Shown here: positions 20,404 through 47,150 of the stretch, one piece after another
Numbering within the stretch: the first letter of the stretch is position 1
How the letters are laid out: every line of letters starts with the position of its first letter
NCBI GenBank assembly: GCA_015068465.1
Contig: SVKM01000001.1
Location: 1,552-65,551 of the forward strand
Direction: 5' to 3'
Origin: Oscillospiraceae bacterium
Lineage (GTDB): Bacteria; Bacillota; Clostridia; Oscillospirales; Oscillospiraceae
DNA: 64,000 nucleotides
The notes under the pieces: generated by a model
The model's database searches: none
What the model was told of the DNA's origin: nothing
The model's input: only the letters and a program-made list of their open reading frames with translations
Made by a program: the position numbers and the translations under genes

Positions 20404-20834
20404 AAATACTGGTCATCAACGGGCCGAACCTCAATATGCTCGGCATCCGCGAGCCGGATATCTACGGCGCGGAGACCTACCGCGCCCTGTGCGCGCGCAT
20501 CGAGGCGTTCGCGCGCGAGCGCGGCGTGGAGGTCGAGCTGTACCAGTCCAACCACGAGGGCGATCTGGTGGACAAGCTCCAGGCCGCCTACGGCGACGCG
20601 GACGGCATCGTCATCAATCCCGGCGCGTACACGCACACGAGCGTTGCGCTGCTCGACGCGCTCAAGGCGGTGTCCATCCCCGCGGTGGAGGTGCACATCT
20701 CCGACGTGTCCGCGCGCGAGGACTTCCGCCGGGTGAGCTACATCCGCGCCGCCTGCATCGCCACGATCTCGGGACACGGGACGAAGGGCTATCTGGAGGC
20801 GATGGAGCTTTTGCTGAAAGAGGCGGGGAAATGA
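20400..20834 (+). CDS. aroQ: Type II 3-dehydroquinate dehydratase
   Basis: NGPNLNMLG.REP.IYG, QSNHEG, NPGAYTHTS, EVHIS. Confidence 0.96.
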   Translation: MKILVINGPNLNMLGIREPDIYGAETYRALCARIEAFARERGVEVELYQSNHEGDLVDKLQAAYGDADGIVINPGAYTHTSVALLDALKAVSIPAVEVHISDVSAREDFRRVSYIRAACIATISGHGTKGYLEAMELLLKEAGK

Positions 20835-22865: not shown

Positions 22866-22887
22866 CGCCGCAGGAGGTACTTTTGCC

Positions 22888-23916
22888 ATGAACATGGATT
22901 TCAAACGCAAGCTCACGATCCCGATGGAAACGAAGGAGATGTACCCGCTCACGGGCGCAATGTCGGAGAGCATCCACCGCTGCACGACCGAGCTCAAGCG
23001 CATCTTCGGCGGGCAGAGCGACAGGCTCGTGCTCATCGTCGGCCCCTGCTCGGCGGACAACGAGGCGTCCGTCCTCGACTATGTTTCCCGCCTGATCCCC
23101 GTGCAGGAGAAGGTGAAGGACAAGCTCCTCATCGTCCCGCGCATCTACACGGGCAAGCCGCGCACCACGGGCGACGGTTACAAGGGCCTGCTGCACCAGC
23201 CCGACCCGAACGAGAAGCCCGACCTCTTCAAGGGCATCATCGCGACCCGCGAGCTGCACATGCGCGTCGTGAAGGAGACGGGCTTCGCCTGCGCGGACGA
23301 GATGCTTTATCCCGAGAGCTACAAGTATATCGACGATCTGCTCGCCTATGTCGCCATCGGCGCGCGCAGCGTGGAGGACCAGCAGCACCGCCTGACCGCG
23401 AGCGGCATTGAGGTGCCCGTGGGCATGAAGAATCCGACGAGCGGCGACCTCACCGTGATGATGAACAGCATCCTCGCCGCGCAGCACAGCCACGACTTCA
23501 TCTACCGCGGCTGGGAGGCGCACTCCTACGGCAACCCCTACGCCCACGCCATCCTGCGCGGCTATGTGAACCGCCAGGGCGTGACGCATCCGAACTACCA
23601 CTATGAGACCGTCGCGTACCTCAGCAGGCTCTACGCGGAGTCCGGCCTGCAAAACCCCGGCGTGGTCATCGACTGCAACCACGCCAACAGCGGCAAGGAC
23701 CCGTTCGAGCAGCCGCGCATCGTCAAGGAGGTGCTCTCGTTCCGCGACCACAACCCCGACGTGCGCAGGCTTCTGAAGGGCTTTATGGTCGAAAGCTACA
23801 TTGAGGACGGCAGGCAGGACGTCGGCGGCGGGTGCTACGGCAAGAGCATCACGGACGCCTGCCTCGGCTGGGACAAGACCGAGCGGTTGATCTACGACAT
23901 CGCCGACGAGCTGTAA
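22888..23916 (+). CDS. DAHP synthase (class I)
   Basis: GPCS, KPRTT..GYKG, AIGARS, VGMKNPTSG, IDCNHANS, MVESY, SITDACLGW. Confidence 0.95.
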   Translation: MNMDFKRKLTIPMETKEMYPLTGAMSESIHRCTTELKRIFGGQSDRLVLIVGPCSADNEASVLDYVSRLIPVQEKVKDKLLIVPRIYTGKPRTTGDGYKGLLHQPDPNEKPDLFKGIIATRELHMRVVKETGFACADEMLYPESYKYIDDLLAYVAIGARSVEDQQHRLTASGIEVPVGMKNPTSGDLTVMMNSILAAQHSHDFIYRGWEAHSYGNPYAHAILRGYVNRQGVTHPNYHYETVAYLSRLYAESGLQNPGVVIDCNHANSGKDPFEQPRIVKEVLSFRDHNPDVRRLLKGFMVESYIEDGRQDVGGGCYGKSITDACLGWDKTERLIYDIADEL

Positions 23917-28352: not shown

Positions 28353-28388
28353 CGCCGGTTTTGCGCCCTGCGGCGGGAAGAATTGCTG

Positions 28389-28426
28389 AAAAGCGCGCAG
28401 AGAGTACGCTCTCTGCGCGCTTTTTT
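28389..28426. terminator. Bidirectional terminator
   Basis: AAAAGCGCGCAGAGAG-TACG-CTCTCTGCGCGCTTTTTT. Confidence 0.85.
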
Positions 28427-28444
28427 AAATCGCTGTTTTCCGGC

Positions 28445-30559
28445 CTAGGTATAGCACGCGATCAGCCGGTCCAGCGCATCCTGCTTGATTTGCAGATAAT
28501 CGCCTCCGCCCATCTCGTCCCGCACCCTTGCGGCGCAGCGCTCCGCCGCATTCGTGCCGTCGGCGCCGATCCCGTTGACGATCGCGTCGACCAGCAGGTT
28601 TTCTCCGCCGATCGCCGCCGAAAAGGAGGTTTCCAGCTCCGTGTGGATGCCGAGCAGGTCGCTCTCCACGCTCGTAAGCGGGAAGACCGTCGGTACGGAG
28701 GTGTACCATTTGTTGCGCGAAAGGTACGGAACGCGCGGCTCGGGATGATGGATCACGCCGAGCGCGATCGCGGCGGAAATGTGGCCGGCGCCTTCCTTGC
28801 TGACCTCGTCCAGACACTGGTATTCAAACGCCTGGCTCTTGATGAACCCCAGCGTAGAGCCCAGATAGCGCCGCGCGTAGTTCACGCAGCTGCCGTCCGC
28901 TTTTTCCCACAGCTCGTCGTAAGCCGCCTCCGCGATCTGCGGCATCTGCGCGCCGTTGAAGGAAAACGTCGCATAGCTGCCGTCCGGGTTTGTCTTGATA
29001 AAGGCGCCCGGGCCGTAGGACATGAGGATCACGCCCTCGTCGCTGTAGGCATAGTCGATGAGCCGCAGCGCGGCGCAGAGTTTGTCGGGGTCGCCTATGA
29101 CGCCGGAGCGGGAAATGCCCCAGCCCGAGGACTTGACGCTGCGCCAGGATTCGGTGAAGCGCATATACTTGCTCCCCAGCGTGCCGTCCTGCCAGCGGGC
29201 GATGGGCGGCAGTACCGGCATATAGCGCGCGTCCTCGCCGGCCTGCGCCTGATTGCAGTCGTAGTGCAGAAAGCCCGTGCCGCGCGCGAGCATTTCCCCG
29301 CCGGTCATATCGCCGCCGTTCAGGAAGGAGTCCGAGATCAAGCCCTCGCGCGCCATATCGTGCATCCGTTCCAGCGCCCGGTAGGTATCCGCTTCCTGCC
29401 TCGCGTCGTGCAGCCCGCCGGTGATGTCGAGATAGAGGTAGTCCTGACGGGAATCCAGCCCGCGCACGCCGAAAAGCTCCCCGGCAAAGCGCACCAGATC
29501 GACGCGGCGCCGGTTGTTCCCGTCCTCGCGGGTAAAGAGGCCCTGAACCGAATCCGTCCCGTTGAGCGTCTGCGGATTGGCGACGACGCAGCGCAGCAGC
29601 GCGACCAGCTCGTCCGCGTCCCAGGCGGCGTTCTGCCCGACAAAAAGGTCGGAGCGCTTCGTGCCGTAGTAGCCGTTGTACGCCTTGTCGATGTAGGAGC
29701 GGAGCATATTCACCGCGGCGACGCCGGAGAGCTTCCCAGCGTCGTTCATCTTTTGGATGATATTGCCCGCCGCGTCGTAATCCTTGGAGACGATCTCCTT
29801 TTTCGACCCGTCCGCCCTGACCACGTCGACGAGCACCCTGCCGGAGGTCGGCATATAGGGGCGGTAATATGTTTCGGCGATCGTGCCGCTTGCGGGCGCG
29901 GAGAACGCGCCGCTGCCGTCGAGCAGCGTCTCCACCCAGTCCGCGCGCATCAGCGGTATGCGCTCGACGTCGTCGACGCCGTCAAGGTACGGCGCATAGT
30001 AAACGGAGCCGACGTCGGTGTTGCCCGTGATGGACAATCGGACGACGGGATTGTCGTCAAGATATGCCTTGAAATGCGGCATGAGATCGAGATACTGGGC
30101 GATGTCGAGCAGCTTGCCCGCCTCTCCGGCTTCGGTCAGCTTGTCCGCCGGGCCGCTGACCAGGTCGATCTCGTCCATGCGATGCGACCAATAGGCGAGC
30201 TCCCTCCCGGCGCCGCTGCCCTGGTATTTGTCCTCAAAACCAATGCCAAGGCGCCGTCCCGCCTCCGCCCAGGTCGGCTTGAGATCGCCGGCGTGGTAGG
30301 TGATCCCGTCCGCGAGGGTCACGCCGCCGCCGGCGGTCTCCGCGTCAAAGCTCAGACCTGTCCGCGCGGAGCCGCAGCCCGTCGCCATGCGCAGCACCGT
30401 GCCCTCGGCGTAGGAGAGCTCCGTGGGGAGCGGCGCTTTTTCCGTGTGCCGCACCGGAGCGGCAGCCGGCTCCTGCGCCGCGCCGCCGGCAGGCGCGCCG
30501 CAGCCGCAGAGCAGGGAGACCGCCAGCAGCAGCGCGAGCAAAGATGTGTTCCGTCTCAT
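28445..30559 (-). CDS. Extracellular solute-binding lipoprotein (sugar-binding family-like)
   Basis: Lipobox LLCGC; LLDIAQYLDLMPHF, RADWVE, SSGWGIS...ALRLIDY.YS.EG...YG; start overlaps the kinase stop. Confidence 0.75.
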   Translation of the reverse strand: MRRNTSLLALLLAVSLLCGCGAPAGGAAQEPAAAPVRHTEKAPLPTELSYAEGTVLRMATGCGSARTGLSFDAETAGGGVTLADGITYHAGDLKPTWAEAGRRLGIGFEDKYQGSGAGRELAYWSHRMDEIDLVSGPADKLTEAGEAGKLLDIAQYLDLMPHFKAYLDDNPVVRLSITGNTDVGSVYYAPYLDGVDDVERIPLMRADWVETLLDGSGAFSAPASGTIAETYYRPYMPTSGRVLVDVVRADGSKKEIVSKDYDAAGNIIQKMNDAGKLSGVAAVNMLRSYIDKAYNGYYGTKRSDLFVGQNAAWDADELVALLRCVVANPQTLNGTDSVQGLFTREDGNNRRRVDLVRFAGELFGVRGLDSRQDYLYLDITGGLHDARQEADTYRALERMHDMAREGLISDSFLNGGDMTGGEMLARGTGFLHYDCNQAQAGEDARYMPVLPPIARWQDGTLGSKYMRFTESWRSVKSSGWGISRSGVIGDPDKLCAALRLIDYAYSDEGVILMSYGPGAFIKTNPDGSYATFSFNGAQMPQIAEAAYDELWEKADGSCVNYARRYLGSTLGFIKSQAFEYQCLDEVSKEGAGHISAAIALGVIHHPEPRVPYLSRNKWYTSVPTVFPLTSVESDLLGIHTELETSFSAAIGGENLLVDAIVNGIGADGTNAAERCAARVRDEMGGGDYLQIKQDALDRLIACYT

Positions 30560-33500
30560 GCCTTTTCTCTCCCGTTGAGCAGCTCATTCACCTGCTCCCA
30601 GTCAAAGCCCGCGATCGCGCTTTTGACCTTTTCGAGCCGTTCCCGGTCCTCCTTCGGAAGGCGGAAGAGCGCAAGGCACTCAAAAACGCCCGCCGGACTG
30701 TCCGCGTCCATGTTTGCGGCGAATTCGCGGAGGCAGTCGTACGCCTCGCGCAGCTCGTTGTCGGATATGAGCGGCAGCGATCCGTCGTCTTCCGCGGTCT
30801 CGCCGCCGCCGCGCAGCGGCGCGAGCGCCGCGCAGATCGCGCGGATGCGCGCGAGCAGGTCGGGAAGGCCCGCGCCGAGCGTTTCCGTATCGCCCGCCTT
30901 GCCCGCAAGCTCCAGCTTCTCCGCCAGCGCGCCTGTGCTCTCCGCGCCGATGGTGCGGGACATGCTCTTGATCGCGTGCACCTTGACCGTGGTGTTCGCC
31001 GCATCGCCAGCGCGCCAGAGGCCCTCGATCTCGTCCGCCGCGCCGGCGGCGTTGCTGGCGTAGATCGCCAGCGTGTCCAGATAGGACTCCGCCGAGCCGC
31101 AGTGCGCAAGCCCTTGCCCGACGTCCAGACCGTCGATCTTCCGCAGCCAGTCCGGAAGAGGCGCGGGCGGCTCCGCTTCCGCGCCGGTATCGCCGGCGTC
31201 CGCCGCGCGCAGCTTCTCTTCGGGCAGATACTGCATCAGGATGTCCTCCAGCCTGCCCGAATCGATCGGCTTGGTCAGGTAATCGTCGAAGCCCGCGGCG
31301 AGATACTGCTCCCGCGCGCCCGAGACGGCGTTCGCGGTCAGGCAGACCGCCGGCGTTTGCAGGTTTGGATTCCCCGCCTCGGCGCGCAGCTCATGCAGCG
31401 TTTCGATGCCGTCCTTCTTCGGCATCATGTGATCGAAGAAGATGAGGTCGTACTGTTTGCCGCGCGTGAGCGCAAGCCCTTCGTCGCCGCTTTCCGCCGT
31501 GTCGATCTGCACGAGCGTGCGCTTCAAAAGGCTCCGGAACACCGTGAGGTTCATCGGCGTGTCGTCGACCACCAGCACACGGGCGTCGGGCGCGGTGAAC
31601 TTCTCGCGGTATTTTTTCCGCCCCGAGAGCGAGGCGCGGTAGGACGCCTCGTAGTCGCCGAGCGCGTCCCATTTGACGACCTTCTGCTTCAAACGGAACG
31701 AGAACGTCGAGCCCTCGCCGTAGACGCTTTCGACCTCCAGGCGGCTCCCCATCATTTCCAAAAGCCGCTTGGTGATGTTCATGCCGAGGCCGGTGCCCTC
31801 AATGTTGCGGTTGCGCTTTTCCTCGATGCGCTCAAATTCCGAAAAGAGCTTTTCGATGTCCCCGGGCTTGATGCCGATGCCGGTGTCCTTGACCGAAACG
31901 TCGAGGAATACGCCGTCCGGCTCGTCGGGGATGCGCTCATAGCCGACGTGGAACGTAACGCCGCCTTTTTCCGTGTATTTGACGGCGTTGGTGAGGATGT
32001 TCGTGACGACCTGCTTGATGCGCACCTCGTCGCCGTGGAGGAGCCTGGGCATCGTTTCGTCGAAATCGAGCGAAAGCCGCAGGCCCTTGTCCTCCGCGCG
32101 GGTCTGGATCATGGTCACAAGATCGTTGAGAACGGAGGAAATGTCGTAGTCCACGGGCAGGATCTCCATTTTGCCCGCCTCGATCTTGGAGAAGTCAAGG
32201 ATGTCGTTGATCAGGCCGAGCAGCGTGTTGCCCGCCGCCTTGATGCTTTCCGCGTAGAGGAGGATGTTTTCGTCCTCGCACTCGCGCAGGGTCATTTCGT
32301 TCATGCCGAGGACGGCGTTGATGGGCGTGCGGATCTCGTGCGACATGTTGGCGAGGAAGTGGGACTTTGCCTGGTTCGCGTATTCCGCCTCCTCCTTGGA
32401 CTCCTTGATCTGCGCGTACTGGCGGTTGATGATCCGGTGATAGTTTTCGGACATCCACATGCCCACCGCGAGCGAGAACACGAGAAAGCCGGAGGCAATG
32501 AGAATGACGCGCAGCAGGAAATCCCAGACATATTCGCTCAGATCCTCCATCGACACGTCCGCGCCCGCGTAGGCGACGCAGTATCCGTCCAGATCGTAAA
32601 TCGGCTGATACACCGTGAGCAGCCAGCCGAACGCGTCGTTGCTCTCGACCGGGGCGATCTCGCCGCCGGCGAGAAGCGCCGGGAGATACGGCTCGAACGA
32701 GGGGTCAAAGGGCATCACGTCGCCGGGCTCATAGGAGTCCTCGCCCGCCGGCGCGGTGTCGAACACCACATGGCAGCCGTCCTCCTCTATGCGATAGATA
32801 TAGACATACTTGAGATAGGGCGTATTGTCCCGGATGCGCTGCAGGCTTTTTCGCACGTCCGCGTAGCTCTGCGCGGCATGGCCGCGCTCCAGATAGACGT
32901 CGATCAGCCGCGGATCGACGGATTCCACGGTCTGCTGCGCCGCGCCGGTGGCGATCTCGATGCGCTCCCTTCTCGCGTTTTCGGTGTAAAGCGCGACGCT
33001 GATCCACGCGCACACCGCCACGAGCGAGATCGCCCCTGCCGTCAGCGCCGCCAGAATGCGGCGGTGCTGGCGGTTGAGGTCGAAGCGTTCGGGGTCGTCC
33101 GTGCGGTTGAGGCTGCGGATCGACTCGCGCGTCTGCACGGGCAGAACGCGCATGGCAAGCGCCACAACCGCCGTTGTGATGAACTTGTCCGCGATGTTCA
33201 GCGCCAGATTCATCAGCATCAGCGCAGGGAACCGCCCGATGTCCGCGAGGCCGACGACCCGGTCCACATAGGGGACGGAGACGAAGTCCACGCTGATGAT
33301 CGTGTTCAGGCTCCACGCGATCAGCCCGCCGAGCACGCCGCCGATGAGCGAGAGCGTCAGAGCGAAGAAAAAGAACCCGCCCTTGCGCTTGAGCACGTCC
33401 TTGTAGAGCATGCGCGAGGCGCTGATGGCGACGCAGATGTTGACGATCGCGAAATAGGCGGACATCCGGCTGAACGACATGCACAGCAGATTGGACGCCA

Positions 33501-33705
33501 GCGCCGTCAGGATCGCGGCGAGCGGCCCGCACTCCCACGCCACGAGGATCGTGCCGATGGTGTCGAGGTACAGCGGCAGCCCGAGCGCCTGCACTGCCAG
33601 CGACAGCAGGACGTTGAGCGCGACGCCGCACAGAACGATGCCGTCCCGCGCCAGCCTGACGCGGTCCACGCGCAGCCCGGATGCTTTGTTCGGAATATCC
33701 TGCAT
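30556..33705 (-). CDS. Hybrid sensor histidine kinase (membrane domain - HisKA - HATPase - REC - Hpt)
   Basis: FLANMSHEIRTP, NAVKYT, DTGIGI, GTGLG, LVVDD, FFDHMMP, VHAIKS. Confidence 0.93.
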   Translation of the reverse strand: MQDIPNKASGLRVDRVRLARDGIVLCGVALNVLLSLAVQALGLPLYLDTIGTILVAWECGPLAAILTALASNLLCMSFSRMSAYFAIVNICVAISASRMLYKDVLKRKGGFFFFALTLSLIGGVLGGLIAWSLNTIISVDFVSVPYVDRVVGLADIGRFPALMLMNLALNIADKFITTAVVALAMRVLPVQTRESIRSLNRTDDPERFDLNRQHRRILAALTAGAISLVAVCAWISVALYTENARRERIEIATGAAQQTVESVDPRLIDVYLERGHAAQSYADVRKSLQRIRDNTPYLKYVYIYRIEEDGCHVVFDTAPAGEDSYEPGDVMPFDPSFEPYLPALLAGGEIAPVESNDAFGWLLTVYQPIYDLDGYCVAYAGADVSMEDLSEYVWDFLLRVILIASGFLVFSLAVGMWMSENYHRIINRQYAQIKESKEEAEYANQAKSHFLANMSHEIRTPINAVLGMNEMTLRECEDENILLYAESIKAAGNTLLGLINDILDFSKIEAGKMEILPVDYDISSVLNDLVTMIQTRAEDKGLRLSLDFDETMPRLLHGDEVRIKQVVTNILTNAVKYTEKGGVTFHVGYERIPDEPDGVFLDVSVKDTGIGIKPGDIEKLFSEFERIEEKRNRNIEGTGLGMNITKRLLEMMGSRLEVESVYGEGSTFSFRLKQKVVKWDALGDYEASYRASLSGRKKYREKFTAPDARVLVVDDTPMNLTVFRSLLKRTLVQIDTAESGDEGLALTRGKQYDLIFFDHMMPKKDGIETLHELRAEAGNPNLQTPAVCLTANAVSGAREQYLAAGFDDYLTKPIDSGRLEDILMQYLPEEKLRAADAGDTGAEAEPPAPLPDWLRKIDGLDVGQGLAHCGSAESYLDTLAIYASNAAGAADEIEGLWRAGDAANTTVKVHAIKSMSRTIGAESTGALAEKLELAGKAGDTETLGAGLPDLLARIRAICAALAPLRGGGETAEDDGSLPLISDNELREAYDCLREFAANMDADSPAGVFECLALFRLPKEDRERLEKVKSAIAGFDWEQVNELLNGREKA

Positions 33706-33756
33706 GCTTTCTCTCTCCTTTGGCGCCGGGCGCCGGATGTGCTTTCTGTCTGCGCC

Positions 33757-34683
33757 TTATTTGCGGTTTTTCTCCTTGGCGCGCTTGTCGTTGATGATCT
33801 TCATGTGCTCGGCGGTGACGAGCTCGACATTGTTCTCCTTCGCCCAGGCCACGCAGCCGCGGAGCACCGTGGGAAGGAACACGCGGGGAACGTTGAGAAT
33901 GGTCTCGAGCGCGTCGTCGGTGAATTTCACCTTGTCGTCGGCGCGGTCGGCGGCGTAGCGCACCGATTCGAGCGACGCCTTGCGGATGGGCAGCAGCTCC
34001 GCGATCATGCGGCGGTGGCGGTGGAACCAGAAATTCTTGCTGTCGCGGTAGCCGAAGTCCACCGGCAGCGGCGGGAAATCCCGCGCGCGCACGCCGTTGA
34101 TGATCGCGTCGCTGTATTTTTTCTTCATCAGGATGCGGTCCACGCGCAGAATGAAGTGCGCGCCGAACTGCGAGGTGATGCCGTTGAAATCATGGTAGGG
34201 CGGCTCGTAGCCGTCGAGCACGCCGGGCTTGTCGTCCTGCGCGCCGTCCAGCTCGCGCATCCAGGTGCATTCGATGACCTCGATGGCGTCGGTGAGGACC
34301 TCCGGGCGCTTCTCTCCCGTCTGCTCCTCGATCTGGCTCTTCTCGCGGCGAAAATTGCACTTGGGCATTTTGTCCTCCGGCTTGTCGCCGGGCCAGCTGA
34401 GCTTGACGCACTCGCGGAACGTCGCGCGCTTGTCGTCGACAAAGTTGATCGCGCACTTGCCGGTGCGCAGGATGTTCTGCGCGGTGTTGGAGGAGTTGCG
34501 GCAGCACAGGAGCATCGCGTAGTATTCCTTCCCCGCCACATAGTAGGGCTGGCAGAGGGAATACGGCCCCAGCGTGGTGGAGCCGTCCTCGCACAGCGTG
34601 CTGACGACGACGGTCGGCATGGGGAAGTACAGGGACGTCTGGTAGAAATTATCCACCACTCTCAGGTTTTCAAAGCTCGACAT
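33757..34683 (-). CDS. Flavin reductase-like (split-barrel) protein with C-terminal PCP_red-like domain
   Basis: PTVVVST...TTLGPYSL, T..NI.RTG.C.IN; C-terminal KFTDDALE.I.NVP..F...V....AKE.....VT.EH; start ATG 34683. Confidence 0.65.
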   Translation of the reverse strand: MSSFENLRVVDNFYQTSLYFPMPTVVVSTLCEDGSTTLGPYSLCQPYYVAGKEYYAMLLCCRNSSNTAQNILRTGKCAINFVDDKRATFRECVKLSWPGDKPEDKMPKCNFRREKSQIEEQTGEKRPEVLTDAIEVIECTWMRELDGAQDDKPGVLDGYEPPYHDFNGITSQFGAHFILRVDRILMKKKYSDAIINGVRARDFPPLPVDFGYRDSKNFWFHRHRRMIAELLPIRKASLESVRYAADRADDKVKFTDDALETILNVPRVFLPTVLRGCVAWAKENNVELVTAEHMKIINDKRAKEKNRK

Positions 34684-34873
34684 GGGTTGGCCCTCCTTGC
34701 ATCGTGGATGTGTCTGTAAAAAGAGTTTACGCATTCTCCGGGGCACTGTCAAGAGTCCGTATCGCGCGCGGGGCGCGGCCGGGCGCTTTGCTTGACAGCG
34801 CGGGGGTTATCTTCTATACTATCCCTTGCGCGCTCTGGGAAACAGGGCGCTTTTCATGGAAAGGTAAGATGTT

Positions 34874-36076
34874 ATGAATCCGATTCAGGCGGCATACTGC
34901 CGCGCATTTCAGCAGGGCTTCCGCATCATGTATCCGCATTTTCCCTACCGCGAGCCGGAGGAGCTGCGCTCCGACGCGGATATCCCCGCAAAGCTGAAGG
35001 AGCTGGGCATTTCCTCGGCGCTTCTGGTCACGAATGAGAGCCTGCGGGGCCTCGGCGTCACCGCGGCGCTCGAGCGCGCGATGGAGCACGCCGGCGTCCG
35101 GTGCGCCGTGTACGACAAGACGCCGCCCAACCCGTCCATCGACCATGTGGAGGAGGCGTACGCCCTCTATCGCGGCGCGGCTTGCGGCGCGGTGATCGGC
35201 TTCGGCGGCGGCTCATGCATCGACTGCGCCAAGACCGTGGCGGCGCGGGCGGCGTATCCGAAGCGCAGCGTCCGGCAGCTCGCGGGCAACCTCAAATTCT
35301 GGGGCAAGCTCCCGCCCGTATTCGCCGTGCCGACGACGGCGGGGACCGGCAGCGAGGCGACGCTTGCCGCCGTGCTGGTGGACGGGGAAACGCGCCGCAA
35401 GTTCACGATCAACGCCTTCCCGCTCATCCCGCGCTACGCGGTGCTGGACGCGCAAAACACCGTCGGCCTTCCGCCGTTCTACACGGCGACGACCGGCATC
35501 GACGCGCTGACCCACGCGGTGGAGGCGTACATCGGCCAGTCGACTACGCGCGAAACGAGAGCGTGGTCGATCGAGGCGGCAAAGCTCATTTTTGAGTACC
35601 TGCCGCGGGCGTACAAGGACGGCGGCGATCTGGAAGCGCGGCAGGCGATGCTGCACGCGTCGTATCTCGCGGGGATGTCGTTCACCCGCTCCTATGTGGG
35701 CTACTGCCACGCGGTGGCGCACTCGCTCGGCGGACGCTACGACACGCCCCACGGCCTTGCGAATTCGGTGTTGCTGCCCTATGTGCTGCGCGCCTACGGC
35801 AAGAGCGTCTATCGCCGGCTCAAGGAGCTTGCGGTGGCGGTCGGGATCGCGGGGGAGAACCTGCCGGAGGCGTTCGCGGCGGAGCGCTTCATCCGCGCGA
35901 TCGAGGATATGAACCGCGAAATGGGCATCCCCGACAAGCTCAGCGGCATCCGCCCGGAGGACGTCGAATCGCTCTCGCGCTTTGCAGACCGCGAGGGGAA
36001 CCCGCTCTATCCCGTGCCGCGCCTCATGGACAGGCGCGAGCTGCAGCGCTTTTACGCGATGGTGTCCGACCGGTGA
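34874..36076 (+). CDS. Iron-containing alcohol dehydrogenase
   Basis: GFGGGSCID, PTTAGTGSE, GIDALTHAVEAY, HAVAHSLGG, PHGLAN. Confidence 0.94.
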   Translation: MNPIQAAYCRAFQQGFRIMYPHFPYREPEELRSDADIPAKLKELGISSALLVTNESLRGLGVTAALERAMEHAGVRCAVYDKTPPNPSIDHVEEAYALYRGAACGAVIGFGGGSCIDCAKTVAARAAYPKRSVRQLAGNLKFWGKLPPVFAVPTTAGTGSEATLAAVLVDGETRRKFTINAFPLIPRYAVLDAQNTVGLPPFYTATTGIDALTHAVEAYIGQSTTRETRAWSIEAAKLIFEYLPRAYKDGGDLEARQAMLHASYLAGMSFTRSYVGYCHAVAHSLGGRYDTPHGLANSVLLPYVLRAYGKSVYRRLKELAVAVGIAGENLPEAFAAERFIRAIEDMNREMGIPDKLSGIRPEDVESLSRFADREGNPLYPVPRLMDRRELQRFYAMVSDR

Positions 36077-39073: not shown

Positions 39074-39673
39074 ATGGGACGCATCCTCTGCCTGGGCGAC
39101 TCGAACACCTACGGCTATGATCCGCGCAGCCTTTTCGGCGGGCGGTATCCCGACGGGGTGCGCTGGACGGGCTTGCTGCAAAGCACGGAGCGAGAGATCG
39201 TCAACTGCGGCCGGAACGGGCTTTGCATCCCGCGCGAGGCGCAGTTCCCCGCGCTCTATGACCTGCTCCGCCGCGCCGGAACGGCGGACACGCTCGTCGT
39301 GATGCTTGGCAGCAACGACCTGCTCGGCGGCGCGCCCGCAGAGGATGCCGCCGCGCGCATGGAGACGCTGCTGCGGTTTTTGGCGGAGCACGCGCCCGGC
39401 GCGCGCATCCTGCTGATCGCGCCGCCGCCGATGCGCTTCGGCGACTGGGTGCAGTCGCAGGCGCTGATCGACGAGTCCGTGCGTTTCGCTGCGCTCTGCC
39501 GGCAGCTTGCGGATAAGCTAGGCATTTCCTTTGCCGACGCGGGGGAATGGGACGTCACGACGGCGTTTGACGGAGTACATTTTTCGCCCGAGGGCCACGC
39601 CGCGTTTGCCGCGGGGCTCGCGGCGGCGTTGGATCGCACGCAGCGGCAACGCACAGAAAGGAACGCTTTATGA
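39074..39673 (+). CDS. GDSL/SGNH lipase-esterase
   Basis: LCLGDSNTYG, N.GRNG, MLGSND, DGVHF. Confidence 0.92.
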   Translation: MGRILCLGDSNTYGYDPRSLFGGRYPDGVRWTGLLQSTEREIVNCGRNGLCIPREAQFPALYDLLRRAGTADTLVVMLGSNDLLGGAPAEDAAARMETLLRFLAEHAPGARILLIAPPPMRFGDWVQSQALIDESVRFAALCRQLADKLGISFADAGEWDVTTAFDGVHFSPEGHAAFAAGLAAALDRTQRQRTERNAL

Positions 39674-41274
39674 GCATACAGTGGAGACGGTACGACCTCA
39701 CCGAAGAGGCGGTCGACCAAATATCGGAATGGGTGCAGGAGACCTGCGACCGGCACGGCGTCCAAAAGCGCGAAAAGCAGCGCATCCGCCTGAGCGTTGA
39801 GGAGGTGCTGCTTCGGATCCGGAAGCACGGCGGGGAGGAGACGGTCTCCGTCGAGGCGGGGATCGGCGCGCGGCTCGGGAGGCAGGTGCTCCTCCTGCGC
39901 TATGCGGGCGGCGCCTGCGACCCCACCGATTACGACGAGGACGACTGGGCCAGCCGGATACGCGGCAACCTCGGCATTTCGCCGGTCTACAGCCGCCGCG
40001 GCGATTCCAACCGCGTTTCCTTCACACTGACGCAGCGCGCGAAGCTCGGCGGCACCGGGTCCATCCTCGCCGCGGCAGCCGCGGCTGCCGCGCTCGGGCT
40101 GCTCGGGCCGCTGCTGCCGGAGGCGCTTCGCACGGGGCTGGATTCGATGCTGCTCTCGCCGCTGACAAACGCCTTTCTGGGGCTGCTGAACACGTTCGCG
40201 GAACTGATGATCGCCTTTGCCATTTGCAGCGGCATCCTCGGCATGGGCGATTCCTCGACTCTGGCAAAGACCGGAAAGACGTTTTTGATACAGATCGTGC
40301 TGCTCTGCACGGCGGCGTCCGCGCTTGCCGCTCTGCTGGCGGCGCCGGCGCTGCGCCCGGAGATGTCCGCCGCCGCGCAGTCGCACTTTACGCAGGCGGG
40401 GAAGATCGGGGAGATGCTCTTCGCCATCCTTCCCTCCGACCCGGTGACGCCGTTCCTCTCCGGGAACACCCTGCAGATCATCGTGATCGCCATGTTCCTC
40501 GGCGCGGGTCTGCTCGCGCTGGGCGAGCGGGCGCGGCATATCCGGGATATCGTCGAGGAGGGGACGCAGCTTTTCGCCCAAATGATGATGGCGGTCTGCC
40601 GCCTGATCCCGCTGTATGTGTTCACCGCGCTTTTGCGCCAGTTCTGGTCCGGCGGCGCGCGGGAGATCCTCTCGGTCTGGAAGCCCGTGGCGCTGATCGC
40701 GGGGATATCCGTCCTCTTTTTGCTGCTGATGCTGCTTTTCACGGCGTGGCAGACGCGCTGCCCCGCCTCGCTGCTGCTCCACAAGCTCGCGCCGCCCTGT
40801 CTGGTGGCGTTCACGACCTGCTCGAGCATCGCCGCGTTCCAGCCGAGCATGGACGCCGGCAGGGACGAGCTGGGGATCGACCCGGCGTTCCTGCGCTTCG
40901 CGTTTCCGATCGGCTCGGTGATGTATATGCCGATGGTTTCTCTGGGCCTGGTCGTCATGTCGGTCCATTTTGCCAGGGAATACGGCGTCGCCGTCAATCT
41001 CTCCTGGTTCATCATGGCGGTGGTGACGGCGAGCCTTCTCGCCATCGCGATCCCGCCGCTTCCCGGCGCGGGGCTGATGATCTTCAGCACGCTCTTCGCA
41101 CAGCTCGGGATACCGGCGGAGGCGCTGCTGCTTGCCGCGCTGATGAACGTGATGCTCGACTATATCATCACCGGCGGCAACAACGCGGCGCTGCTGCTGG
41201 AGCTGACGCGGGAGGCGGAGCATCTCCATATGCTCGACCGGACAGTACTGTTGAAACGAGGGAATGAAACATGA
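39670..41274 (+). CDS. Dicarboxylate/amino acid:cation symporter with N-terminal soluble extension
   Basis: AFTTCSS.AA, FPIG...M, AIPPLPG motifs; about 115-aa N-terminal domain (RLSVEEVLL.I..H). Confidence 0.85.
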   Translation: MSIQWRRYDLTEEAVDQISEWVQETCDRHGVQKREKQRIRLSVEEVLLRIRKHGGEETVSVEAGIGARLGRQVLLLRYAGGACDPTDYDEDDWASRIRGNLGISPVYSRRGDSNRVSFTLTQRAKLGGTGSILAAAAAAAALGLLGPLLPEALRTGLDSMLLSPLTNAFLGLLNTFAELMIAFAICSGILGMGDSSTLAKTGKTFLIQIVLLCTAASALAALLAAPALRPEMSAAAQSHFTQAGKIGEMLFAILPSDPVTPFLSGNTLQIIVIAMFLGAGLLALGERARHIRDIVEEGTQLFAQMMMAVCRLIPLYVFTALLRQFWSGGAREILSVWKPVALIAGISVLFLLLMLLFTAWQTRCPASLLLHKLAPPCLVAFTTCSSIAAFQPSMDAGRDELGIDPAFLRFAFPIGSVMYMPMVSLGLVVMSVHFAREYGVAVNLSWFIMAVVTASLLAIAIPPLPGAGLMIFSTLFAQLGIPAEALLLAALMNVMLDYIITGGNNAALLLELTREAEHLHMLDRTVLLKRGNET

Positions 41275-44200
41275 AGCTGATCCATGAGCTGGTAAGCGAA
41301 TACGCGGCGGCGTTTCCCGAAAAAACAGCGGTCGCCGACGCCGACGGCGAAATAAGCTACGGGGAGCTGGAGGCGCGCAGCGCCGCCCTCGCCGCGGCGC
41401 TCGCCGCGCGCGGCGTCGGGGCGGGCGACGCGGTCGCCGTCTATGTGCCCTACGCCAAGGAGATCATTTTGGGCGCCGTTTCCGCGCTGCGCGCGGGAGG
41501 CGTTTTTATTCCGTTTGACGACGCCTACCCCGTGGAGCGCCTGGACTATATGCTGCGCGATTCCGACGCCAAGGCGATCCTGACCGTGCGCGGGCTCTGG
41601 GAGCGGAAGAAGCCGGATTTCCCGGAGGAAAAGGCGGTTTTCATGGACGAGCCGCCGGAGGAGGACGGTGCGTTCGTTCCCTGCGAGGGGCTTTGCGAGG
41701 ACTCTCTTGCGATGCTGCTCTACACCTCCGGCACCACGGGGAACCCGAAGGGCGTGGTGCATACCCACAGAATGCTCACGCACCTTGTGGACTGGACGAA
41801 TGTCCATGAGGACGCCAGGATCGACGCAAATACCCGCTCGGGCGTGATGTCGAGCTTTTCCTTCGTCGGCTCGCAGATGTTTTTGATGGGGCCGATTTCC
41901 AAGGGCGGCACGGTCTGCATCGCGCCCGAGGCGGCGCGCAAGGACATCGGCTACCTCTATCAGTTCCTCCGCGAGGCGAGGGTCACGCATATCTTCCTGC
42001 CCTCCGGCCTTGCGGCGATATTGGCGGAGGACTATGACATCGACGGCATCCATGTCTTTGCCGCCGGGGAAAAGCTGCGCAATTTCCGCCCGCATTCCCC
42101 CGGCAACGTTCTGATCAACAGCTACGGGAGCACGGAAACCAGCGGCGTGCTGTCGGAAAAGATCCGCGGGGACGAGGAGCGCATTTCGGTCGGCAAGCCC
42201 TATGTCAACACGAAGGCGCGGCTCGTCGACGAGAATCTCCGGCCCGCGGCGCCGGGAGAGGCGGGCGAGCTGCTGATCTCCAACGGCTATATGTCGCGCC
42301 GGTACCGGGGCCTGCCGGACCTGAGCGCGCAGAAGTGGATCGTTCTGGACGGCGAGGTGTGGTTCCGCACCGGCGACCGCGCGCTGTATACGCCGGAGGG
42401 CGGCTACGAGCTGCTCGGGCGCATGGACAACATGGTCAAGCTGCGCGGCTTCCGCATCGAGACCGGCGAGGTCGAGGCGCAGGTCGCCAAAGCCGCGGCG
42501 GAGCTCGGCGAGGTGGGCCAGATCGTCGTGACGGTGCGGGCGGTCGGCGGCACGGACCGCCTTGTGTGCTACTACGAGGCGGAACAGGAGCTGGATACGC
42601 AGGCGGTCACGGAGGAGATCGCCAAGCACCTCGCGGAATACATGATCCCGGATATCTGGGTGCGCGTGAGCAAGTTCCCGCGAAACGCCAACGGCAAGGT
42701 GATGCGCGGCGAGCTGCCGCAGCCGAAGCGGACGCGGAAAACCGCCGGCGTGCTGGACAGCGAGCTGATCGCGCGCTTGCTGTGGACGGCGGCGGAGGTG
42801 CTGGACACGGACGACTTCATCAGCCCGGAAGACAAGTTCACCGAGCTCGGCGGCACCTCCCTGACCGCGATGAAGTACGCCGCGATGCTGCGCGAGCAGG
42901 GCATCAAGGTCAGCGGGGCGCAGATACTCAAGCTCAATGAGTTCCGCAGGATCGAGGCGGCGGCGGAGGTCGCCTATGAGCGGTTCTGGACGCAGGAGGA
43001 GTATGAGGCGGTGCGGCGCGACTTCGCCGAACGGGGCGAGCACATCCGGAAGGTCCTGCCCATCACGCCGCAGCAGGACGAGATGCTCTTCGAGCAGATC
43101 ATCCACCCGGACCGGGGCAGCCTGCGGAACGTCGTGTGCCTGCAAATGGACAGCGTCGTTTCGGAAAGCGATCTGCGCGAGGCGCTGGATCTCGTCGCGG
43201 CGGAAAACGAAACGCTGCGCTCCGCCATTGTGTTTCACGGCGTCACGGTCATCCAGCAGGCGGTCACCGACCGGAGGATCCCGCTTCACATGATCGAGGC
43301 GGGCGCGTTCGGCACGCAGGAGATGTCCGCCCTGCGCGACCAGCTCCTGCGCTCGCCCATGGATCTGCAGCGCTCAAGCCTGATGCAGGCGGTCTGCGTA
43401 CATGCCGACGGCATGACGTTCCTGTATGTGATGACGCATCGCGTCGCCTTTGAAAAGGCGCAGATGCAAAAATACCTTGCGCGCTTGAGCGGCGCGCTGG
43501 AGGAAAAGTACCCCGGCGACGAGTCCATCCGCGGCTGGCGGGAGATCTTTGAGCTCGGCCTCGGGGCGGAAGGCGCGGAGAAAACCGCCGCCGCGCCGGA
43601 GCGCATCAAGCGGGAAGCGCCGCCGGAGATGTGCGTCTATTCGGAGAACAAGGGCCCCAAGCTGGTCTTCGTCCACACGGGCAACACCGGCTCCGAGGCG
43701 TATTATCAGCTCGCCGACAGGATCGGCGATCGCGTTTCCTTCGCGGTCATCGAGCCGTTCAACCTCTACCATATGGACGAGGCGCGCTACGGCATCCCGA
43801 ATATTGCCGCGAACTACATCGACATCCTCAAGCGCTATCAGCCGCAGGGGCCGTATCTGCTCGGCGGATGGTGCTACGGCGGCGTCGTGGCGCACGAGAT
43901 GGCGTGCCAGCTTGAGCGCGCGGGCGAGGAGGTGCTGCGCCTGTTCATGCTGGATTCCCACGCGCTCGGCAGCGAGAGCCTGCGCGAGATGTCCAGGGGC
44001 ATGCACGCGCAGGTCAACCGCGAATACTTTGAGACGAGCCCGCTGTTCGCGGAGCTGCGCGAGAGCGGGATGCTGGAGGCGGTCGTCACCAACGCCGCGC
44101 ACGTATCGGAGGATCTGATGAACCACGTTCCGTCGTTCTTCCACGGCGATGTGACCTATTTCAAGCCCGACGAGATCCCGGGCGGCGTGACGGGGGACAA

Positions 44201-44381
44201 CCGCAGATACTGGGAGAAGATGATGGAGTTCGACGCCGGCAACTATGAGCGCTACTGCGAGCGCGGCAAGCTCCGCATCATCCACACGCCGCACGAGCAC
44301 GATCTGATGATGGACGCCGCGTCGCTGGATATCATCGTGCCGGAGATACTGGACGCCGTCCGAAAGGCGGCCGGACAATGA
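41271..44381 (+). CDS. Single-module NRPS-like enzyme: A - carrier - truncated C - thioesterase
   Basis: YTSGTTGNPKG, YGSTE, RTGD, VKLRGFRIE.GEVE, NANGK; FTELGGTSL (Ppant Ser); PITPQQ..MLF; GGWCYGG. Confidence 0.88.
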   Translation: MKLIHELVSEYAAAFPEKTAVADADGEISYGELEARSAALAAALAARGVGAGDAVAVYVPYAKEIILGAVSALRAGGVFIPFDDAYPVERLDYMLRDSDAKAILTVRGLWERKKPDFPEEKAVFMDEPPEEDGAFVPCEGLCEDSLAMLLYTSGTTGNPKGVVHTHRMLTHLVDWTNVHEDARIDANTRSGVMSSFSFVGSQMFLMGPISKGGTVCIAPEAARKDIGYLYQFLREARVTHIFLPSGLAAILAEDYDIDGIHVFAAGEKLRNFRPHSPGNVLINSYGSTETSGVLSEKIRGDEERISVGKPYVNTKARLVDENLRPAAPGEAGELLISNGYMSRRYRGLPDLSAQKWIVLDGEVWFRTGDRALYTPEGGYELLGRMDNMVKLRGFRIETGEVEAQVAKAAAELGEVGQIVVTVRAVGGTDRLVCYYEAEQELDTQAVTEEIAKHLAEYMIPDIWVRVSKFPRNANGKVMRGELPQPKRTRKTAGVLDSELIARLLWTAAEVLDTDDFISPEDKFTELGGTSLTAMKYAAMLREQGIKVSGAQILKLNEFRRIEAAAEVAYERFWTQEEYEAVRRDFAERGEHIRKVLPITPQQDEMLFEQIIHPDRGSLRNVVCLQMDSVVSESDLREALDLVAAENETLRSAIVFHGVTVIQQAVTDRRIPLHMIEAGAFGTQEMSALRDQLLRSPMDLQRSSLMQAVCVHADGMTFLYVMTHRVAFEKAQMQKYLARLSGALEEKYPGDESIRGWREIFELGLGAEGAEKTAAAPERIKREAPPEMCVYSENKGPKLVFVHTGNTGSEAYYQLADRIGDRVSFAVIEPFNLYHMDEARYGIPNIAANYIDILKRYQPQGPYLLGGWCYGGVVAHEMACQLERAGEEVLRLFMLDSHALGSESLREMSRGMHAQVNREYFETSPLFAELRESGMLEAVVTNAAHVSEDLMNHVPSFFHGDVTYFKPDEIPGGVTGDNRRYWEKMMEFDAGNYERYCERGKLRIIHTPHEHDLMMDAASLDIIVPEILDAVRKAAGQ

Positions 44382-44593
44382 CATGAGGCGCCGTATGGAG
44401 CCTTGGACCGCGGACAGCGCGGCGCCGGGCGCGCCGGACGTTCCGCTGCGCGTATGAATTCTGCCGCGTAAACTTGAACATAATCCGAAATCTGCATCTG
44501 TTATTGTGAGCTTGCAGAGTATATAATAAATAAGAACGAGCATTATTCCGACGCCCCGGAACGGGAGCGCGTGATAATCGTAACAGGTGGCAT

Positions 44594-45130
44594 ATGGGAA
44601 AGAATACGCGCAACACGATACTGGAAAGCTACAAAAGTTTGTTGGAACGGCAGGCCGCCGACCAGATCACGGCAACGGCGGTGATCAAGGAGTGCCATAT
44701 CGGGCGCAGCACTTTTTATTATCACTATCGGGACGTCTACGAGCTTCTGGACGATACGATACGCAGCGTTTTTGCCGACTGTGAGGAGGCTGTGCGGAGC
44801 GGAACGTGGCAGGATGTGATGAAAACGCTCCTGTATACCTGCCGGGACAACAAAAGCCTCGTCTACCACATCTACTATTCGCTGAAACGGGAGCATTTCG
44901 GACGCTTTTTCAACAAGTGCCTGATGGACGCCATTTCGGAGCACATCGCCGGGCTTGCGAAGGAGCGCAACACCGACGCGCAGCGCACGGAGACCATCAC
45001 GGAGATCGTTTCCTATTCCGCCATCGGTTATATCATTCATTTTCTCTGGCACGACATGGAGGACGATATCGAGGAGACCGCAGGCAAGCTCAGCGTTGTT
45101 TACGAGGAGCTGCTGGACCGGATGCTCTGA
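44594..45130 (+). CDS. TetR/AcrR-family transcriptional regulator
   Basis: ITATAVIKECHIGRSTFYYHY.DVY.LL helix-turn-helix. Confidence 0.9.
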   Translation: MGKNTRNTILESYKSLLERQAADQITATAVIKECHIGRSTFYYHYRDVYELLDDTIRSVFADCEEAVRSGTWQDVMKTLLYTCRDNKSLVYHIYYSLKREHFGRFFNKCLMDAISEHIAGLAKERNTDAQRTETITEIVSYSAIGYIIHFLWHDMEDDIEETAGKLSVVYEELLDRML

Positions 45131-45194
45131 GCGCCGAAAAGAGCAACGCCGCGCAGGCGGCGGGAAATAAAAAAACATTATGGGAGGGAACCGA

Positions 45195-47150
45195 ATGTTT
45201 AAGAACATGTTCAAAAAGCTCGGCTCGCAGATCACGGTGATCACCGTCGCGGCGGTGACGCTGCTCGCGGCTGTGCTGATGGTCGTCACCATCTCACAGT
45301 TCAAGGCATACAGCAACGGTCTGCTGCAGGAGCGCTCCAACGCCGGCGAGCGGGTATTGGAAACGACGCTGAGCGATGAGATCACGATCTGCTGCAGGGA
45401 TCAGATCATCCTGACCAAGGACGTGGCGACCATGTCCGGTCCGGCGGTGGCGATCGCCGGAAGGTTCGAGGAGATCTACAACCAGCAGTTCAGCTCGCAG
45501 AAGCACCTGTGCGTGCTCCTCGCCGACGAGAACGGCAAGATCCTCTACGCAAGCCCGACGACCCCGTTTAGCAGCTATGACTTCTCCTCTGTGGCGCGCG
45601 GCGCGACCATCAGCGGCGTCGTGAAGGCGGACGAGCAGCTCGTCGGCATGTACGCGAGCGCGGCGTCCACCGGCAGCGGCAACCCCTGCGTGATCGCGGT
45701 GGGCTTCCTGATGAGCGAGACCGACTGGCTCGACACGGCAAAGGCGGAGGCCGGCTGCGAATTCACGATCATCAATCAGGACACGCGCTACTCCACGACG
45801 CTTCTGAACGCGCAGGGGCAGCGCAACATCAACACCAAGATCGACAGCAGGATCGCGAACGTCGTGCTCAACGACAAGACCACTTACCACGGCGACACCA
45901 CGATCAACGGCGACCACTATTACGTTACTTACGCGCCGCTGTCCGACGTGAACGGCAACGTGATCGGCTCGTATTTCGCCGGCTCCAACTCCGAGGCGGC
46001 TGACAGGCAGTTCCGGAACGTCGCGCTGATCGCCGTCGCGATCGGCATCCTCGGCGCGGTCGGCATTGCGGTCTATCTCGTCCTCTTCACCCGCAGGCGT
46101 GTCAGCGAACCGCTCAACAACGCCGAGCTTTTCGCGCGGGAGATGCTCGCCGGTCAGCTCGATTCCACCTCCGTGACCTATCAGTTTGCCGACGACGAGG
46201 TCGGCGAGTTTGTCGGCGTGCTCAAGCAGGCGAAGGGCGGCATGAACGCCGTCGTGGGCGACGCGTCCCGCATTCTCGCCGCGATGGCACGCGGCGACTT
46301 CACCGAGCGGCCGCGTGTCGATTATCCGGGCGTGTTCCGCGAGATCCACAACAACCTCGATAAGATCGAAAGCGACCTCGGCATGACGATCCAGACGATG
46401 AACGCCTCGTCCGCCGACGTGCTCACGGGCTCCACGCAGATGGCGGAGGGCTCGCAGTCCCTTGCCGAGGGCACCACGCGCCAGGCGTCCGCCATCGAGG
46501 AGATCTCCGCGACCATCCAGGACGTCTCCACGCAGATCTCCGCCACCGCGGACAACGCCGCGCAGGCGGGCAGGCTCTCCGAACAGACGCAGGAAAAGGT
46601 CAATTCGCAGGACGCCGAGATCCAGAACATGGTCGCGGCGATGAACGAGATCAGCGACACCTCCAAGGAGATCGAGAAGATCATCAAGACGATCGAGGAC
46701 ATCGCGTTCCAGACCAATATCCTCGCGCTCAACGCGGCGGTCGAGGCGGCGCGCGCCGGCGAAGCCGGCAAGGGCTTCGCGGTCGTCGCGGATGAAGTCC
46801 GCAACCTCGCGACCAAGTCCCAGGAGGCGGCGAAGAGCACCTCGGCGCTGATCAACGCGTCTATCGCCGCGGTCGGCAAGGGCTCGGAGATCGCCACCGC
46901 CACGGCGGAGTCCATGAAGGAAGTCAAGGACATGTCCGCCCAGACGGCGAAGATCATCGTCGACATCGCTCAGGCAAGCCAGGAGCAGAGCGAGTCCATC
47001 AAGCAGATCACGGCGGGCGTCGACCAGATCTCCCAGGTCATCCAGACCAACGCCGCGACCGCCGAGGAGACCTCGGCGCTGTGCTCCTCGCTCAGCGGCC
47101 AGTCCAAGAATCTTCAGGATCAGGTCGCGCGCTTCAAGGTCAGCGATTGA
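45195..47150 (+). CDS. Methyl-accepting chemotaxis protein (Cache sensor, HAMP)
   Basis: Two TM segments, DEVGE HAMP motif, [34 protein letters not shown]. Confidence 0.95.

Follow-up and report, generated by a model that had tools for sequence, protein, structure and literature searches.

Domain organization of the NRPS-like gene

The 64,000-nucleotide stretch of DNA analyzed here (hereafter the window) comes from an Oscillospiraceae bacterium (contig SVKM01000001.1) and carries, at 41271–44381 on the + strand, a gene resembling those of nonribosomal peptide synthetases (NRPSs). Its 1036-residue product comprises an adenylation (A) domain, a carrier (T) domain, a half-size condensation (C) region that we term C*, and a type I thioesterase (TE), an A-T-C*-TE layout deduced from the open reading frame (ORF) list, the translation, Pfam searches and full-length homologues of 99–61% identity. 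The ORF is uninterrupted; its ATG is preceded 8 nt upstream by a GAGGG ribosome-binding site, and the start codon is supported by the homologues, which open with the identical MKLIHEL. We propose that the gene codes for a working single-module NRPS-like enzyme.

Pfam assigned AMP-binding to residues 10–345 (226 bits), AMP-binding_C to 409–476, PP-binding to 506–560, Condensation to 593–723 (profile positions 2–138 of 456; 34.2 bits, cut-off 30.6) and Thioesterase (PF00975) to 797–929 (76 bits, cut-off 26.4). In the translation, the diagnostic motifs SFSFVGS, GGTSL, THRVAFE and GWCYGG occupy residues 195–201, 527–531, 722–728 and 866–871, respectively. The AlphaFold model of the full-length protein had a mean predicted local distance difference test score (pLDDT) of 81; Foldseek searches with it recovered only multidomain NRPSs, and a separate C*-TE model was made for Foldseek searches with C* and the thioesterase. 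Homologues are named "AMP-binding protein" by NCBI and nothing more specific, a label that conceals a definable family with clear diagnostic residues.

The adenylation domain and its substrate class

The A domain (residues ~1–490; 41271–42740, + strand) was delimited by Pfam AMP-binding and by its best PDB match, module 1 of the linear gramicidin synthetase LgrA. It keeps the core motifs A3 (TSGTTGNPKG), A7, A8 (GRMDNMVKLRGFRIE) and A10 (NGK), and the equivalent of Lys517, Lys476, is invariant in the 67 full-length relatives that we compared (42–74% identity). Against the NCBIfam amino-acid adenylation model TIGR01733 the domain scores 264 bits, under the cut-off of 317.4. LgrA module 1 (PDB 6MFZ and others) matched residues 2–738 at E ~1e-72 by sequence and at E 7e-50 by Foldseek, the match extending from the A domain through the T domain into the first lobe of the next C domain, and the two proteins share the SSFSFxGS form of A4. 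However, LgrA module 1 activates valine and has Asp235, the A5 Pro and a complete active C domain, whereas the window protein has Val, Ser, a half C domain and a thioesterase.

The sequence-only reading of this DNA had claimed that the A4 motif, SFSFVGS (41853–41873, + strand), lacks the Asp that binds the α-amino group of the substrate. Indeed, SSFSFVGS aligned without gaps to LgrA SSFSFDGS in HMMER, placing Val199 (codon 41865–41867) on the Asp of FDxS, the position of GrsA Asp235. Among the relatives this position is Val in 54, Ile in 8, Met in 2 and Ser in 2, and never Asp; a hydrophobic Val, Ile or Met, as in keto-acid A domains, is present in 64 of the 67. The second feature of keto-acid A domains was found in the A5 motif, NSYGSTE (42117–42137, + strand), where Ser287 replaces the conserved Pro of NxYGPTE; the relatives have Ser (56) or Cys (11) at this position, never Pro. 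By comparison, 119 A domains of neighbouring NRPSs retain Asp235 in 105 cases and the A5 Pro in 118. Because nearly all A domains of NRPSs in the same operons keep Asp and Pro, a specific adaptation to a non-amino acid is the best reading of the substitutions.

Both substitutions have structural precedents. StsA, the only crystallised keto-acid-selecting domain, has a hydrophobic residue at the Asp235 position; its determinants are I306 and M415, and M415P abolishes adenylation (PMC11253843). Replacement of the A5 Pro in StsA frees a backbone carbonyl that contacts the keto group, and LgrA P483M/A gains activity on α-ketoisovalerate (PMC11253843). In a 2026 study of the keto-acid ligase Dol15D, V219D, at the position-235 equivalent, abolished keto-acid adenylation (PMC13643306). 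The domains of StsA, cereulide-type depsipeptide synthetases and Dol15D thus share with the window protein a hydrophobic residue at position 235 and a non-Pro residue after the A5 Gly. In contrast, the depsipeptide keto-acid modules have the organization C-A-KR-T, with a ketoreductase (KR), and are described as a clade apart from canonical A domains; the window protein lacks such a domain, and every one of its top matches among solved structures is to an NRPS A domain. Pfam and NCBIfam searches of the protein gave no match to a KR or short-chain dehydrogenase/reductase (SDR) domain, and a keto acid would therefore stay a keto acid.

Judged from these residues, the earlier proposal that the A domain activates an acid without an α-amino group is well supported: position 235 is never Asp, the A5 Pro is always Ser or Cys, and nearly all A domains of the partner enzymes keep these residues. 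The predicted substrate is most likely a 2-oxo (α-keto) acid; a 2-hydroxy or aryl-alkanoic acid is possible instead, as Val at position 235 is also found in McyG. Conserved-motif anchoring through the LgrA alignment yielded the approximate 10-residue specificity code V-G-M-G-F-A-S-G-V-K, in which position 331 is uncertain because the protein lacks one residue in that region. Except at Val/Ala and Lys, this code does not match the aromatic keto-acid code that Wackler et al. reportedly described in 2012.

Carrier domain and half condensation domain

The T domain (42786–42950, + strand; Pfam PP-binding) carries the predicted phosphopantetheine attachment site, Ser530 (codon 42858–42860), in the motif GGTSL. 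This Ser, previously noted as intact, is invariant among the relatives.

C* (residues ~590–765; 43038–43565, + strand) corresponds to the N-terminal lobe of a condensation domain, as delimited by Pfam, the LgrA alignment, AlphaFold and Foldseek. In both AlphaFold models residues ~590–765 form a confident α/β domain (pLDDT ~80–94), followed by a disordered linker (766–781) and the thioesterase. The model, which the sequence-only reading had suggested as a check, thus shows the C-like region as a confident single-lobe domain, and Foldseek matched it to the C domain of SrfA-C (E 7e-11). Complete C domains have two lobes (~450 residues); here there is a single lobe, and the C-terminal lobe is absent. 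The earlier description of a half C domain of about 190 residues with a degenerate motif therefore stands, but the register of the motif had to be corrected. HRVAFEK (723–729), not THRVAFE, aligns with LgrA HHILLDG, so that the catalytic second His corresponds to Arg724 and not to His723. Whichever register is used, the motif is degenerate, without a recognizable HHxxxDG, and it varies across the family.

The donor carrier site of C domains lies mainly on the C-lobe (PMC10510592), the lobe that is absent from C*. In addition, one family member of 821 residues (P0136) has no C* at all. Because only the N-lobe is present, the His motif varies, the lobe with the donor site is gone and P0136 dispenses with the region, we take C* to be a structural remnant; the data support the view that it is catalytically dead.

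A thioesterase with a cysteine nucleophile

The thioesterase (residues ~787–1036; 43629–44378, + strand) was identified by Pfam PF00975, by sequence matches to NocB and AB3403, and by Foldseek. Its catalytic triad consists of Cys868 (43872–43874), Asp895 (43953–43955) and His1010 (44298–44300), all on the + strand, and is invariant in 67 of 67 relatives. The nucleophile elbow reads GGWCYGG, with Cys in place of the Ser of GxSxG throughout the family, in agreement with the Cys nucleophile claimed earlier for GWCYGG. In the model, Asp895 lies 27 residues past Cys868, immediately after β6, and it aligns with [VL]DSH of NocB. The top Foldseek matches were the thioesterases of AB3403, NocB and Pks13, with a probability of 1.0.

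A Cys nucleophile in an NRPS thioesterase is rare, yet already known. The Cys thioesterases of solved structure are those of ObiF, SulM and the uncharacterised AB3403 (PMC11298585). ObiF forms a β-lactone and SulM a β-lactam, and in both the catalytic Asp has moved to the loop after β7 (position II), whereas that of AB3403 remains in the usual place after β6 (position I) (PMC11298585). Since Asp895 occupies the conventional post-β6 position, the window thioesterase is AB3403-like, and a thioesterase of the β-lactone- or β-lactam-forming type is ruled out by the position of this residue. Although ObiF1 and SulM share with it a Cys nucleophile in an NRPS type I thioesterase, they differ in the position II Asp, and the Gln-Cys-Asn of SulM contrasts with Trp-Cys-Tyr here.

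The two closest relatives differ from the window protein in other ways. AB3403 (Acinetobacter baumannii, C-A-T-TE, PDB 4ZXH), whose elbow reads GGWCFGG, was the top Foldseek match and the second-best sequence match; the two thioesterases share the GGWC[FY]GG elbow and the Asp at position I, but that of AB3403 is preceded by a full C-A-T module whose A domain binds glycine. NocB, of nocardicin biosynthesis, was the best sequence match (E 1.6e-15) and shares the GGWxFGG elbow and [VL]DSH; however, its elbow, GGWSFGG, has a Ser nucleophile, and its substrate is a pentapeptide. The earlier suggestion that the Cys thioesterase may act as a transacylase or condensing domain is plausible.

Distribution of the family and its wider relatives

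A protein search returned more than 120 clusters at 61–74% identity, all of ~1040 residues and with the same domains, and one further assembly carries a 99%-identical copy. Scanning one genome per species gave 133 coding matches, from which 79 loci (labelled L below) were kept; the family is present in at least 75 species-level genomes. Most of the 79 loci belong to metagenome-assembled genomes (MAGs) from ruminant and other guts, and one cultured strain, Butyrivibrio sp. YAB3001 (L038), is included. Locus labels include Oscillospiraceae, Ruminococcus, Lachnospiraceae, Prevotella/Bacteroidaceae, Fretibacterium, Coriobacteriaceae, Selenomonadales and Treponema, a phylum spread taken from MAG labels that binning errors may inflate, although some of the contigs are 346–829 kb long.

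When the whole library was searched with the C*-TE part, no more than 60 representatives scored below E 1e-30. Among these wider relatives (labelled P), T(GGTS)-C*-TE(Cys) also ends multimodular NRPSs, as in P0138 (C-A-T-C-A-T-C*-TE) and P0149 (A-T-C-A-T-C*-TE); the GGTS form of the carrier motif is common to the window protein, P0138, P0149 and P0136. Many NRPSs with this Cys thioesterase at their end open with a loading A domain that likewise lacks Asp235 and the A5 Pro (P0140, P0142, P0163, P0164 and P0170). The more distant P0150 and P0152 are plain A-T-TE proteins of ~800–820 residues with a non-Asp residue at position 235 and a non-Pro residue in A5, and the thioesterase elbow of P0136, P0150 and P0152 is GGWCYGG/D. 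The recurrence of the keto-type A domain together with the Cys-thioesterase clade, in cis and in trans, suggests that the two chemistries are linked.

One might go further and regard T(GGTS)-C*-TE(Cys) as a distinct, horizontally mobile termination cassette, in which C* and the Cys thioesterase would act jointly and non-hydrolytically on 2-oxoacyl or 2-oxoacyl-peptidyl thioesters, for example by C–C or C–O ring closure or by peptide-aldehyde capping; we consider this speculative and rather improbable. If it were true, the result would be an undescribed class of small molecules whose production is widespread among bacteria of ruminant and other guts, across several phyla. Our literature searches found no account of an A-T-C*-TE family, although an earlier mention is possible. 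The fixed combination of features, its abundance in ruminant guts and the T-C*-TE cassette appear to be undescribed, whereas each single feature has precedent.

P0131 (1185 residues), a family member found among the representatives, has an extra C-terminal HATPase_c_2-like domain of the anti-sigma-factor kinase type. This domain matches the STAS and SpoIIE genes found beside the family gene, which hints at a partner-switching module that regulates the pathway.

Association with a partner NRPS and proposed role

An NRPS of 2200–3300 residues ends directly upstream of the family gene in 40 (~78%) of the 51 loci that have at least 3 kb of upstream sequence. The stop codon of the partner and the start codon of the family gene often overlap, and the family gene is the last of its operon in most genomes. 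The partners mostly have the organization C-A-T-C-A-T-R, with a starter C domain that retains HHxxxDG or SHxxxDG and a terminal reductase (R) domain with an NAD-binding motif. Other recurrent neighbours of the family gene encode a SpoIIE phosphatase (some with a HATPase_c_2 tail), a STAS protein, an Sfp-type phosphopantetheinyl transferase (PPTase) and a MatE exporter. Among the genes of the related loci no further ligase or carrier recurs, which leaves the A-T pair of the family protein as the only evident source of an acyl group for the starter C domain of the partner. As that domain has its active-site motif but no acyl donor of its own, supply of a starter or cap is the most economical role for the family protein. 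The cis fusion of such an A domain, as loading module, to NRPSs with the Cys thioesterase (P0140, P0142, P0163 and P0170) also speaks for this role.

Whereas the domain anatomy, the residue substitutions, their conservation and the genomic association are observed, the kind of substrate, the way the acyl group travels and the nature of the product are inferred. The A domain would adenylate a carboxylic acid without an α-amino group, and Ser530 of the T domain would receive it in thioester linkage. With C* inert, the acyl group would move onto Cys868 as a thioester acyl-enzyme and be passed on, more likely by transfer or by a ring- or bond-forming release than by plain hydrolysis. In the usual operon the protein would in this way provide a short peptide aldehyde with its non-amino-acid starter or cap. 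We regard this sequence of events, from a 2-oxo-type acid on Ser530 past an inert C* to acyl transfer by Cys868 and a starter for a peptide aldehyde, as moderately probable.

Comparable designs exist. NRPSs of gut Clostridia with a terminal reductase are said, in work by Guo et al. from 2017, to give dipeptide aldehydes and pyrazinones; those enzymes share with the partner genes the organization C-A-T-C-A-T-R or A-T-C-A-T-R and the gut habitat, but the 64-kb window contains no such NRPS. The design proposed here, a non-amino-acid cap joined to a dipeptide aldehyde, is also that of aeruginosins.

Several points weigh against the starter model. The substrate class is read from two residues and analogy, and McyG, with Val at position 235, is described as a Phe-activating domain (PMC11253843). 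KR is absent here, unlike in the characterised keto-acid modules of depsipeptide synthetases. A starter donor would leave the strictly conserved Cys thioesterase without a necessary job, and the partner NRPS already owns a release domain, R. About a quarter of the partners start with an A domain or with their own keto-type loading module (L024, L028, L041, L074, L057, L033, L079), and the family gene is still present. Finally, there is no partner NRPS nearby in the window or in L035, L025 and L038.

The last of these points, together with the dead C*, bears on a different and more tentative explanation, possible but clearly less probable than starter supply. The protein might, like fungal and bacterial A-T-TE enzymes, be an autonomous synthase that loads the same 2-oxo acid twice, with one copy held by the T domain and the other by the nucleophile of the thioesterase. 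The latter domain would join these units into a small cyclic product, for example a furanone, quinone or lactone, and the product of any neighbouring NRPS would be separate. With C* dead the architecture is functionally A-T-TE, P0136, P0150 and P0152 are plain A-T-TE proteins, and in the window, L035, L025 and L038 the gene occurs without a partner. Such a layout is that of the non-reducing A-T-TE enzymes (quinone, furanone and butyrolactone synthetases), which likewise have one module and no working C domain, use α-keto acids as substrate class and have the thioesterase as sole bond-forming domain; they differ in being mostly fungal and in having no C remnant, and they use a Ser nucleophile. 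On the other hand, the position of the family gene directly behind an NRPS in 78% of the loci, often with overlapping codons, argues for a shared pathway, and the departure of the specificity code from that of aromatic keto acids also counts against an autonomous synthase.

The partners without a starter C domain would be explained if the protein were a cis-fused acyl shuttle, in which the Cys thioesterase takes the acyl group off the T domain of the same protein and hands it to a second carrier domain, or to an amine or hydroxyl on the peptide made by the partner. We consider this model, which corresponds to the transacylase idea of the sequence-only reading, unlikely. An invariant Cys implies a thioester acyl-enzyme, from which transfer would be energy-neutral, and the Pks13 thioesterase, which passes an acyl chain to trehalose, is among the close structural neighbours. 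SyrC and CmaE, stand-alone Cys-dependent α/β-hydrolase acyltransferases, may offer a further parallel. However, in P0138 and P0149 T-C*-TE ends the assembly line in the manner of an ordinary releasing thioesterase, and the closest Cys thioesterase, AB3403, is uncharacterised.

Two partner genes stand out. At L079 (1329–9992) Ile occupies position 235 and Gln replaces the A5 Pro in the first A domain of the partner, and the operon thus contains two keto-type A domains. At L003 (3234–10004) the partner opens with the C-lobe only of a starter C domain, the mirror image of the N-lobe remnant in the family protein; its residues 20–299 align with residues 190–490 of the L012 partner, a stretch that runs from the C-terminal part of its starter C domain into the beginning of its A domain. 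A split C domain, composed of the family N-lobe and a C-lobe as in L003, was considered and rejected, since the starter C domain of most partners is complete and has an intact His motif, and the His motif of the family is dead.

Biosynthetic loci of the NRPS type rank among the most abundant in ruminant gut genomes, yet hardly any can be assigned a product. The family described here unites three rare features, namely a keto-acid-type A domain without KR, a half C domain and a Cys thioesterase. If it does cap peptide aldehydes or form rings from keto acids, it would open up a new and testable area of gut microbial chemistry, whose products might serve as protease inhibitors or signals, and would offer a compact enzyme for engineering non-amino-acid starters.

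Genomic context and transcripts in the window

In the window, the genes for amidase_3, a GDSL lipase, an SDF symporter and, at the end, the NRPS-like protein overlap or closely follow one another on the + strand. The gene immediately upstream (39670–41274, + strand) encodes a sodium:dicarboxylate symporter family transporter (Pfam SDF, 170 bits), and the end of this gene and the beginning of the NRPS-like gene share a 4-bp overlap (ATGA), which points to a maintained operon. Similarity of the symporter to DctA, SstT and GltP is weak, under the NCBIfam cut-off, and gives no clue to its substrate. No SDF transporter homologue lies beside the family gene in any fetched related locus. When amidase_3, the GDSL lipase, SDF, TetR, the chemoreceptor and an iron-type alcohol dehydrogenase of the window were compared with the related loci, only the dehydrogenase recurred meaningfully; the remaining matches were to L029 (27%) and, weakly for GDSL, to L070. 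Because the window neighbours do not recur, the coupling to the transporter is taken to be lineage-specific.

Searching the window by tblastn with six partner NRPSs matched the NRPS-like gene alone, and no PPTase, STAS, SpoIIE or MatE homologue was found within the 64 kb. The copy at L035, which also has no partner NRPS, is accompanied by a PPTase only. In this genome the enzyme would act either alone or with partners encoded elsewhere. In gut metatranscriptome contigs the NRPS-like gene has a depth of 1–5, a level at which DNA carry-over is possible. The missing partner NRPS and PPTase and the low transcript coverage might indicate a decaying orphan without function in this genome, and the closest solved relatives of the A domain (LgrA, McyB) activate amino acids, as would be expected of an ordinary module with hydrolytic release. 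Either possibility is very improbable in our view, given the family-wide replacement of Asp235 and the A5 Pro, the intact ORF with all catalytic residues, the 99%-identical copy in another assembly and the 4-bp overlap with the transporter gene.

Downstream of the NRPS-like gene lie genes for a TetR-family regulator (44594–45130, + strand; Pfam TetR_C_8/TetR_N) and a chemoreceptor (45180–47150), which are probably on a separate transcript. Metatranscriptome contigs covering 44557–46710 (TetR and the Cache/HAMP chemoreceptor) have a depth of 44–68, 10–20 times that of the NRPS-like gene, and in several faecal runs the two genes appear as one contig. The window sequence is also present in bovine gut and faeces metagenomes.

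In L049 and L051, a gene ~1 kb downstream of the family gene encodes a 53%-identical homologue of the iron-type alcohol dehydrogenase (34874–36076); this may be an accessory function that recurs, for instance aldehyde reduction, or a coincidence. The symporter has an N-terminal extension of ~130 residues (39670–40060) with a weak HATPase_c_2 match (24 bits, cut-off 27.4); kinship with the HATPase_c_2 tails of P0131 and the SpoIIE neighbours was considered and rejected, as no similarity was found. Shikimate-pathway genes (EPSP synthase and DAHP synthase; 20489–23916) lie 17–20 kb upstream of the NRPS-like gene, with no apparent link to it. Two + strand ORFs at 28361–31063 (900 residues) and 30544–34719 (1391 residues) gave no Pfam match. 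Additionally, the − strand gene at 57541–61215 encodes a predicted surface protein of 1223 residues with Listeria-Bacteroides repeats, S-layer homology, Big_2 and a transglutaminase-like core.

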